21,709 nt of DNA from IMG/VR virus record IMGVR_UViG_2563366822_000014, one strand, 5' to 3'. This DNA is from a virus (taxonomy: Duplodnaviria > Heunggongvirae > Uroviricota > Caudoviricetes). The position numbers and the translations under genes are program-made. Below, piece after piece: positions 4,530 through 6,771 of this stretch; positions within the stretch are counted from its first letter, which is position 1; each line of letters starts with the position of its first letter. The notes beneath the pieces were generated by a model. The model was not told the DNA's origin. It made no database searches and saw only the letters and a program-made list of their open reading frames with translations.

Positions 4530-4913
4530 ATGCGTGATATTCAGATGGTTCTTGAGCGTTGGGGAGCGTGGGCGGCTAATAATCATGAAGATGTGACCTG
4601 GTCGTCCATTGCCGCCGGTTTTAAGGGATTAATTCCTTCAAAAGTAAAATCTCGCCCGCAATGTTGTGACGATGACGCGATGATCATTTGCGGGTGCATG
4701 GCCCGTCTGAAAAAGAACAACAGCGATTTGCACGATTTATTAGTAGATTATTATGTAGTCGGTATGACATTCATGTCACTGGCAGGTAAGCATTGCTGCT
4801 CTGATGGTTATATCGGGAAAAGGTTACAAAAGGCTGAGGGCATAATTGAAGGGATGTTAATGGCATTAGATATCCGGTTAGAGATGGATATCGTTGTTAA
4901 TAACTCTAATTAA
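4530..4913 (+). CDS. quuD: late-gene antiterminator Q (DLP12 QuuD-type, 127 aa)
   Basis: ATG at 4530 gives [62 protein letters not shown]...; Cys-rich zinc-binding pattern; sits between the nin region and the lysis genes. The ORF-track TTG start at 4515 is rejected. Confidence 0.85.
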
Positions 4914-4940
4914 TACGCCAATTATTTACTAAAAGTTATT

Positions 4941-4964
4941 AAAAATGGGGCGTTGAAACGCCCC
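4941..4964 (-). terminator. intrinsic terminator-like hairpin for minus-strand transcripts (downstream of nmpC)
   Basis: Perfect 6-bp GC stem GGGGCG/CGCCCC with 6-nt loop at 4947-4964; on the minus strand it is followed by ATTTTT (4941-4946). On the plus strand it is followed by A-rich sequence, so it is not a plus-strand terminator. Confidence 0.5.
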
Positions 4965-5052
4965 CAAAAATAAAGGGTAATATATAACAGAAGGTTTGTA
5001 TAGTTAGAAGCAAGGTTGTGCTTCTAAAGGAAGTGGCTTGAGGGAGCCACTT

Positions 5053-5086
5053 ATATGTTGGGGAGGCAAAGCCTCCCACAACATAT
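5053..5086. terminator. long stem-loop immediately 3' of the nmpC stop (3' stabiliser or terminator candidate)
   Basis: About 15 bp stem (5053-5067 with 5071-5086), one bulged A, 3-nt loop; followed on the + strand by CTTTT. The strand of action is not resolvable from sequence alone. Confidence 0.4.
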
Positions 5087-5101
5087 CTTTTAGTAATCAA
5101 A

Positions 5102-6184
5102 TTAGAACTGGTAAACCATACCTACAGCAACGATATCATCGGTAGCAACGCCAGATGCTTTCGTGAAATCGCTCTTATCAATCAGGTTGATTTTGTAGTC
5201 AACAAAAGTGGACATATTTTTGTTGAAGTAATAGGTTGCACCTACATCAACATATTCAACCAGGTCCTGATCACCCCAAACACCCAAGTCTTTTCCTTTA
5301 GAATGCAGGTAAGCAACGGATGGACGCAGGCCGAAGTCGAACTGATATTGTGCAACAGCTTCGAAGTTTTGTGCTTTGTTGGCAATATGGTTATTACCAA
5401 AAACAGTCATGTTCTGGGTTTCAGAATAGGTGGTGGCCAGATAGATGTTGTTCGCATCATATTTCAGACCAGCTGCCCATACTTCAGCATTTTGACCAGA
5501 AGCATTCAGACCGTTGTTACCGTAGATAACCTGATTATTAGTGCGATCAGATTTAGCATAGGTTGCACCTACACCGAATCCTTCATACTCATAAGTAGTG
5601 GAGAAACCGAAACCATCACCATTAGCTTCAGTTACGTCAGTGCGGTCATTTTTACCCTGATACTGAGCAGCAAAGTTCAGACCATCAACCAGACCAAAGA
5701 AGTCGTTGTTACGATAAGTTGCAACACCAGTGGTGCGACCAGTCATGAACACATCTGTTTGAGTCCAAGTGTCACCACCGAATTCTGGCAGGACGTCAGT
5801 CCACGCACCGATGTCGTATGCTACACCGTAGTTACGGCCGTAATCGATGGAGCCGTAGTCACCGAATTTCAGGCCAGCGAAGGCAAGACGGGTTTTATCT
5901 TTGGAGGAACCTTGAGATTCAGCGCGGTTGCCTTTGAATTCATATTCCCACTGACCGAAACCAGTCAGTTGATCGTTGATTTGGGTTTCACCTTTGAAGC
6001 CAAGACGGGCATAAGTAGTATCACCATCATCTGCATCATTAGAGGAGAAGTAGTGCTTAGCATTAACTTTCCCGTACAGATCCAGCTTGTTACTGTCTTT
6101 ATTATAAATTTCAGCTGCCTGAGCAGACATCGCCATCAGTACTGATGCAGCTACAGCAGAAATTGCCACTGTTAATTTTTTCAT
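5102..6184 (-). CDS. nmpC: outer-membrane general porin, NmpC/OmpD type (intact, 360 aa incl. signal peptide)
   Basis: [26 protein letters not shown]|[24 protein letters not shown]... ending ...VAVGMVYQF with the classic porin C-terminal Phe; signal peptidase site AQA|AE; recognised as NmpC-like. Confidence 0.95.
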
Positions 6185-6771
6185 CGTGAGCCCTTTTTTT
6201 TGAACTATTATTAAAAAATGATGTCACTGCGCGATAAATATTCATCTAATCAATGTGATTATTTCAAGATGTAAGTTTTAGTTTCTCATTTAATTTGTGA
6301 AGTAGATCTCTATTTTTATCTGAACTTTTTCTATCGAAACCTATTTATGGCTCTTATTTGAACAAAAATAAACCTATTAGCTAATTTATATTAATGGCTG
6401 TTATTTATGGGGGGCTATAATTCGATGGTTTAATTTAAATTAACTAAAAATAACGCCGGAAATTATTTATTGGTTATTTGTTGAGGTTTTCTTATGTATT
6501 TGTGGTGGTGTTTTGAACACTCGGTAGCATTCTCATAAATATCATTCAGTGGTTTACGTACGTAAAAAATTGGTTATGCTGTTAAGAGTGGTTACTTCGT
6601 CACACAGCTTAAACCCGCCGTCGAGCTGGTTTTTCCATTTTTTGAGTCTCGATATTAGCTGATAACTCAATACCTGAGTTATTCACTGACTCCGAGTCTG
6701 TTACGTTTCTGCTTTTTTGCGATACGTTGTATTCCCTCAATTTACACCCGCTTTGTCTGCGAGGTGGGGTT
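6185..6771. promoter_or_regulatory. 587-bp AT-rich non-coding region: nmpC promoter/5'UTR (minus strand) and leader of the lysis operon (plus strand)
   Basis: No ORF over about 17 codons; strongly AT-rich with A/T tracts and short palindromes (6431-6444 ttaatttaaattaa; 6559-6568 tacgtacgta; 8-bp inverted repeat ataactca/tgagttat around 6664-6684). Promoter elements are not confidently placed. Confidence 0.5.

Follow-up and report, generated by a model that had tools for sequence, protein, structure and literature searches.

The hairpin-dense quuD–nmpC spacer of a lambdoid prophage very probably encodes the small RNA IpeX, with predicted pairing to ompC and ompF

The question raised by this locus is what is encoded by the hairpin-dense spacer of 188 nt at positions 4914-5101 of a 21,709-nt stretch of viral DNA (the whole stretch analysed, hereinafter the window), and on which strand. 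The original prediction for the spacer named a minus-strand equivalent of the small RNA IpeX, located at the 3' end of the porin gene nmpC, and, as a fallback, a late promoter unit. The analysis presented here indicates that the spacer is very probably IpeX, encoded on the minus strand as the ~166-nt 3' end of the transcript of the phage porin (nmpC/lc). The element is, accordingly, the already known prophage sRNA IpeX, and the only possibly new point is the computed complementarity to ompC and ompF.

The expectation that the spacer is flanked by convergent quuD and nmpC is borne out by the list of open reading frames and by Pfam matches. The RNA and the genes on its two sides are as follows:

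4530-4913, plus strand: quuD, Q antiterminator gene, convergent with nmpC (Pfam PF06530, E 8.5e-54)
5102-6184, minus strand: nmpC/lc-type phage porin gene, intact, 360 aa (Pfam PF00267, Porin_1, E 3e-152)
4939..5104, minus strand: probable IpeX RNA, 166 nt, the untranslated 3' stretch of nmpC that starts with the stop codon and finishes with the terminator U-run (homology to MG1655 and K-12 coordinates)

QuuD is distantly related to the Q21 structures 6jnx and 6p18; the annotation quuD is carried by identical records, and the porin gene is named OmpC/OmpD in identical records. In E. coli K-12, an IS5 insertion 58 bp ahead of the stop codon divides nmpC, which is intact in the window. Foreign DNA abuts the element in two variants from viral contigs (one of them L096, 6634-6808): one junction is located at the Q stop codon, with an IS5-like end (GGAAGGTGCGAATAAG), and the other near window position 4932, with IpeX and the terminator intact beside both.

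Membership in the IpeX family is assigned from sequence, position, strand, length and terminator. IpeX of prophage DLP12 is a 167-nt RNA, which is part of the porin transcript, is processed and controls OmpC (PMC12197685); IpeX is also present in phage PA-2 (PMC10690425), and K-12 ipeX was detected in RNA-seq re-analyses (PMC8313858). Alignment of the window spacer with the DLP12 quuD-nmpC spacer of E. coli K-12 MG1655 showed ~97% identity with one 1-nt indel inside, and this identity, together with the ipeX coordinates, upholds the predicted minus-strand IpeX equivalent at the 3' end of nmpC. In K-12, ipeX occupies NC_000913.3 574365-574531 on the reverse strand (167 nt), an entry 'manually added to GFF' (PMC8313858, supplement 1). 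The K-12 nmpC coding sequence ends at 574529, and ipeX runs from the first base of the stop codon to just past the U-run of the terminator. Transferred by alignment, these coordinates place IpeX of the window at 5104..4939 (minus strand, 166 nt), the difference in length arising because the window has one T fewer; the 5' end follows the annotation, in which ipeX begins precisely with the stop codon, possibly by convention and not because an end was mapped there. The start at the nmpC/lc stop codon, the strand and the end at the shared terminator facing quuD are the same as in IpeX of DLP12 and PA-2.

The spacer with its flanks is 100% identical in many E. coli prophages and in phage ev243, and matches to lambdoid phages cover 87-93% of the window. 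Of 5426 complete E. coli genomes, 2533 (~47%) have the Q-spacer-porin arrangement, as do 36 phage records. In 43% of complete E. coli genomes the junction is matched over at least 80% of its length, and the number of its copies per complete genome has a median of one place and a maximum of 3. A search of genome contigs with the 15-mer AWATAACAGAAGGTT gave, among the matches listed, only chance ones in unrelated phyla.

Rfam 15 gave no match to the spacer at the gathering score and nothing meaningful at E<=10; the weak matches, namely traJ_5, AniS and sau-19, are chance hairpin matches far below threshold. Since the spacer is nearly identical to K-12 ipeX, Rfam 15 apparently holds no IpeX family. 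The gene ipeX is absent from the RefSeq feature table of MG1655 (NC_000913.3 574340-574531), although micF and micC are present; automated annotation therefore leaves the RNA unmarked in thousands of E. coli genomes. No ipeX entry was found in the supplements of PMC12306157.

The secondary structure of the spacer is represented by the following elements:

5053..5086, minus strand: stem-loop 1, 15 bp with one bulge, -22.2 kcal/mol (fold)
5031..5052, minus strand: stem-loop 2, 8 bp (6 bp at 5033-5050) (fold)
5044..5039, minus strand: loop of stem-loop 2, CCCUCA (TGAGGG on the plus strand), invariant
5004..5027, minus strand: stem-loop 3, 9 bp (7 bp at 5006-5025), -9.6 kcal/mol (fold)
4968..4996, minus strand: single-stranded linker with predicted antisense seed (duplex prediction, cofolding)
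4941..4965, minus strand: Rho-independent terminator of nmpC/IpeX, stem GGGGCG/CGCCCC at 4964..4947, then A-UUUUU at 4946..4941 (terminator scan), -12.5 kcal/mol
5053..5091, plus strand: hairpin of stem-loop 1, then C-UUUU, terminator-like for a rightward transcript leaving Q (judged from the sequence), -22.2 kcal/mol

The four stem-loops predicted in the spacer were all recovered where they had been placed, and the spacer folds far better than its shuffles. The predicted minus-strand GGGGCG/CGCCCC stem with its T-run is among the results of the terminator scan, as the 4947-4964 hairpin with A-UUUUU, and the stem of 15 bp predicted at 5053-5086 does contain 15 bp, with one bulge. The folding energy of the 188-nt spacer is -67.5 kcal/mol for the minus strand and -71.6 kcal/mol for the plus strand, against -34.7 +/- 3.8 and -39.7 +/- 3.5 for dinucleotide shuffles of the respective strands (z -8.7 and -9.1); none of 200 shuffles folds as well, and the individual hairpins have energies from -9.6 to -22.2 kcal/mol. 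IpeX would thus be composed of three stem-loops, a single-stranded linker of ~40 nt and a Rho-independent terminator. All four hairpins and the linker are shared with IpeX of DLP12, from which the RNA of the window differs by a few loop substitutions and one G·U/A-U change in stem-loop 1.

The terminator scan did not flag the plus-strand site 5053-5091. The T-run after stem-loop 1 on this strand has 4 residues in the window, 5 in MG1655 and 6 in a divergent (UMNF18-type) lineage, and the hairpin, judged from its sequence, may terminate a transcript that leaves Q. If the Q transcript ends here, its 3' end would be fully antisense to IpeX, and early lytic and porin/IpeX RNAs might interact.

Comparison of natural variants supports the hairpins by compensatory and G·U changes in 38 distinct sequences, specifically as structures of the minus-strand RNA. 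Viral contigs were scanned with the porin 3' end TTAGAACTGGTAAACCA as the query, which is unbiased as to the spacer, and 113 spacers of this kind were found, 38 of them distinct. Four variants (L009, L026, L035 and L117) form a divergent lineage, which shares ~77-81% identity with the window type across Q, the spacer and the end of the porin gene, and which also resides in E. coli (e.g., UMNF18 and SE11). In the variant alignment, 99.7% of cells are paired, and five pairs are changed on both sides. The observed covariation score was reached by none of 500 shuffles, and slid controls gave no covariation, the covariation of the alignment resting essentially on one deep split between two lineages, that is, on few independent events.

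The consensus fold of the alignment retains stem-loop 1, stem-loop 2 and the terminator. Stem-loop 3, which MAFFT misaligns by one column in the divergent lineage, was dropped by RNAalifold and was checked by folding each variant separately; the hairpin is kept in every variant folded, with a different stem in the divergent lineage (AAAGAC/GUCUUU). Both-side changes were found in 2 of the 13 aligned pairs of stem-loop 1, where every one-sided change gives a G·U pair on the minus-sense RNA. In stem-loop 2, three of seven pairs are changed on both sides in the divergent lineage, and the loop is invariant. The 7 pairs of the terminator stem are 99.6% kept across the variants. A common A->G variant in stem-loop 3 gives a G·U pair on the minus-sense RNA and a weaker hairpin on the plus sense (-9.7 vs. 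-5.9). Every one-sided stem substitution (17 cells) is a G·U pair on the minus sense and would be an A·C mismatch on the plus sense, and broken cells number 3 on the minus sense versus 18 on the plus sense. The structure therefore appears to be selected in the RNA continuing from nmpC, not in RNA of the Q strand. The loop CCCUCA (5039-5044) remains invariant even over stems that are changed on both sides or shortened (Lambda_4C10).

Towards the end of nmpC, a consensus promoter scan listed nothing sigma-70-like on the minus strand. Since a separate promoter was not found, IpeX would be made with the nmpC mRNA from the nmpC promoter and would have its 3' end at the shared terminator. Mature IpeX would then be released by processing, as stated in the literature. 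As nmpC of the window is intact, IpeX can be made here from the porin promoter, as described for PA-2. The RNAs CpxQ and SroC are sRNAs derived from 3'UTRs. Such sRNAs resemble IpeX in the terminator shared with the upstream mRNA, in that no promoter of its own was detected, and in release by processing (PMC12197685).

The fallback placed the late promoter PR', qut and tR' in the interval 4914-5101, a position directly downstream of Q that fits a PR' unit by position alone. This placement did not hold: the promoter scan found no plus-strand promoter in the spacer 4914-5101, and the promoter motif of the Q family (TTTAC-N3-CGTAAAAA, 8 more spacer bases, TATNNT) occurs instead once on the plus strand of the window, at 6553-6580, with TTTAC-N3-CGTAAAAA itself at 6553-6568. 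The late promoter region is represented by the following elements:

6553..6634, plus strand: Q-dependent late promoter region, between nmpC and the holin gene (alignment with VT2-Sakai)
6553-6558, plus strand: -35 element TTTACG
between -35 and -10, plus strand: promoter spacer of 16 nt, which contains CGTAAAAA
6575-6580, plus strand: -10 element TATGCT
after the -10 element, plus strand: conserved TAAGAGTGGTTAC
6613-6634, plus strand: hairpin with T-run

In VT2-Sakai, the late promoter, qut and the terminator are annotated directly after a related Q gene, and the late promoter sequence aligns with window positions 6552-6634, not with the spacer. The PR' start of Stx phages was located 258 nt upstream of the tR' 3' end by dRNA-seq and Term-seq (PMC7547250), and arithmetic on the Sakai locus shows that this distance fits the annotated Sakai promoter. 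Phage Lambda_2E9 has a 90%-identical Q gene, with the promoter motif located beyond different inserts, namely a reversed gene of blc lipocalin and a ybgA-like gene (L003 3879-4035, 5756-5783). The location of the motif beyond nmpC in the window, and beyond the inserts in Lambda_2E9, therefore suggests that nmpC and ipeX form an accessory cassette ('moron') between Q and PR'. Judged from these gene orders, accessory genes have been inserted repeatedly between Q and PR'.

A candidate PR' directly after Q in Lambda_2E9 (TTGCTG-17-TAATGT) was dropped, the family motif having been found further downstream. In Lambda_2E9, Q is followed by a hairpin (GCCAGCCTCCCCAAAGGCTGG with a T-run) similar to the second of the terminators that lie beyond PR' in VT2-Sakai (L005 2186-2214). 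The hairpin 6613-6634 of the window differs from that of MG1655 by G->T in the stem (GCGGG->GCTGG), and its folding energy is only -5.8 kcal/mol, so that in the prophage of the window some PR' transcripts may escape termination.

Like IpeX, the RNAs DicF and StxS are prophage-encoded and act on core-genome mRNAs (PMC5069750; PMC7547250). StxS originates from the PR'-tR' transcript on the late strand, whereas the accessory gene that gives rise to IpeX lies upstream of PR' and is read from the other strand.

Repression of both ompC and ompF by IpeX is described in the literature (PMC5069750; PMC7177473). By analogy with the K-12 and PA-2 orthologues, IpeX of the window would lower OmpC and OmpF, so that the lysogen would swap host porins for the phage porin. 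According to reviews, complementarity to ompC was not found, and the regulation is perhaps indirect (PMC12197685, PMC10690425).

The linker of IpeX, ~40 nt from stem-loop 3 to the terminator, is predicted to be mostly unpaired (probability 0.72-0.84). It contains AACCUUCUGUUAU, which is the longest invariant block of the RNA (39 variants; two lineages ~20% different). The sequences of ompC, ompF and micC were read from MG1655. In the leader of ompC (AAAUAAAGGCAUAUAACAGAGGGUUAAUAACAUG), positions -21..-7 are complementary to AACCUUCUGUUAUAU of the linker (4996..4982) over 15 bp that include one G·U and span the Shine-Dalgarno sequence, and positions -31..-23 are complementary to CCUUUAUUU (4976..4968) over 9 bp. 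The two helices (15 + 9 = 24 bp) are separated by a 1 x 5 interior loop. The duplex of the linker with ompC has a predicted energy of -26.4 kcal/mol versus shuffle means of -13.6 and -14.8, and an equally good duplex arose in none of 2000 sRNA shuffles and in 4 of the 2000 shuffles of the target. Conservation of the second helix (CCUUUAUUU) does not extend to the divergent lineage; this helix overlaps nt 128-142 of K-12 IpeX, a 'likely functional region' derived experimentally in an accessibility study (PMC8313858). Among 627 unrelated initiation regions there are 2 that match the score of ompC; the duplex is thus unusual, not unique. These two equal scorers are start regions of phage genes with AUAACAGAGG (-27.4 and -27.3 kcal/mol; loci L001-L125), which may be due to chance or represent further targets.

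In the leader of ompF (CCAUGAGGGUAAUAAAUAAUG), pairing with GUUAUAUAUUACCCU (4988..4974) is found at 14 of 15 positions, from the Shine-Dalgarno sequence up to the start codon; in the divergent lineage, all 15 positions pair in a hand alignment. The ompF duplex (-19.1 kcal/mol) surpasses shuffled sequences by a narrow margin only: 121/2000 and 46/2000 of these do as well. The loop CCCUCA of stem-loop 2 is complementary to UGAGGG in the Shine-Dalgarno region of ompF and in the ompC leader near -66, and may be a second contact site.

Duplex folding of the full-length RNA gave artefactual interactions with huge loops; duplexes of the linker only were used, together with cofolding of full-length IpeX with 121-nt leaders. 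Cofolding keeps all four hairpins of IpeX and forms the duplexes with ompC and ompF. The following values of ddG were obtained:

ompC: -21.6 kcal/mol
ompF: -14.0 kcal/mol
ompA: -7.8 kcal/mol
phoE: -5.9 kcal/mol
nmpC itself: -5.8 kcal/mol
ompN: -5.1 kcal/mol

The K-12 variant of IpeX gives the same ranking of leaders. With the divergent variant, ompF is slightly ahead of ompC, and both are ahead of the other four leaders. In the mechanism suggested by these predictions, the invariant unpaired linker would base-pair directly with the ompC and ompF mRNAs at their translation-initiation regions and block ribosome binding, and the nmpC leader, which is without the site, would escape.

The predicted IpeX site in ompC is the same as the site matched by the 5' end of MicC, GUUAUAUGCCUUUAUU. 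MicC is a chromosomal Hfq-dependent sRNA that represses ompC. Its 5' sequence GUUAUAUGCCUUUAUU and the IpeX sequence GUUAUAU-AUUAC-CCUUUAUU are both complementary to AAUAAAGG(C)AUAUAAC of ompC. The seed is 5'-terminal in MicC and internal in IpeX; the IpeX duplex is broken by a 5-nt loop and reaches 8 nt further over the Shine-Dalgarno sequence, and IpeX, unlike MicC, is the 3'UTR of a phage gene. The likeness would be one of working, not of family; beyond the two motifs no resemblance was seen when the RNAs were compared without alignment.

On these predictions, the chances appear evenly balanced that IpeX is a phage-borne mimic of MicC/MicF, i.e., a conventional antisense regulator, the complementarity of which was overlooked. 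The one-base G·U interruption leaves a perfect match of only 10 nt and could, as a conjecture, have kept the complementarity from being recognized. An earlier description of the pairing may exist. The abstract of the work of Castillo-Keller, Vuong and Misra of 2006 (J Bacteriol 188:576) reportedly states that there is no complementarity to ompC. In the same work, the effect on ompC is said to be Hfq-independent and the effect on ompF Hfq-dependent; this difference would agree with the duplex being strong for ompC and weaker for ompF. No RIL-seq chimeras of IpeX with ompC were found in the literature; in one study the sRNA was 'not captured' (PMC8313858).

Other explanations of the locus differ in their probability. 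A real IpeX that acts indirectly, for example by titrating Hfq or another factor, or through its structure, without pairing with ompC or ompF, is possible, if rather doubtful. The reviews mentioned (PMC12197685, PMC10690425) state that there are no complementary sequences, or that complementarity is not the only basis; moreover, the conserved stem-loops and the invariant CCCUCA loop could serve another partner, and the two unrelated initiation regions pair as well as ompC. Indirect action leaves aside, however, the 24-bp two-helix duplex at the ompC ribosome-binding site, matched in 0-4 of 2000 shuffles, its location at the seed site of MicC, the position of the seed in the longest invariant stretch, and the order ompC > ompF >> ompA, phoE, ompN and nmpC, which fits the reported targets. 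It is improbable that the spacer contains only terminators and mRNA-stabilizing hairpins of the two convergent transcripts, Q and nmpC, and has no function in trans. The minus-strand terminator is genuine, the plus strand has a terminator-like hairpin with a T-run, and hairpins at 3' ends commonly protect mRNAs, but three of the hairpins are beyond the needs of termination, the most conserved part is the unpaired linker, which is of no use in termination, and the nearly identical K-12/PA-2 sequence was reported to repress OmpC and OmpF when expressed.

Location of PR', qut and tR' in the interval, with the hairpin-rich RNA as a plus-strand '6S-like' transcript, is very unlikely. PR' directly follows Q in lambda, 82, 21 and Stx phages, and a weak plus-strand candidate (TTGAAA, 19-nt spacer, TAATAT; 4953-4983) is present in the spacer, as is the terminator-like hairpin 5053-5091; yet the scan revealed no plus-strand promoter, the family motif is present only at 6553-6580, upstream of the holin gene, where it is followed by TAAGAGTGGTTAC and a hairpin with a T-run, and the G·U changes favour a minus-strand RNA. 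Hardly any probability is assigned to the hairpins being dispersed palindromes of the REP/BIME type, or to the interval encoding the 53-aa open reading frame 4939..5100 (minus strand). A REP-prediction tool labelled ipeX 'REP' (PMC12306157), although the junction is not dispersed (median one place per genome, maximum 3) and the stems are unlike each other; the open reading frame is present in the program-made list, but its frame is broken by 1-nt and other indels not divisible by three between the window, MG1655 and other variants. IpeX, as the 3' end of the porin transcript, is thus the reading retained here.

IpeX is known as a prophage sRNA by which the outer membrane of the host is remodelled, and the finding confirms the presence of an intact nmpC-ipeX conversion cassette in the prophage. 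The late promoter of this Q family can be located more than 1.6 kb from Q, beyond inserts, which is useful for prophage annotation. If the predicted pairing is true, one 3'UTR would carry out the porin swap of lysogenic conversion, with the leader of the phage porin spared, and IpeX would represent a phage-evolved functional copy of a host sRNA seed, located in the 3'UTR of the very gene that replaces the targets.
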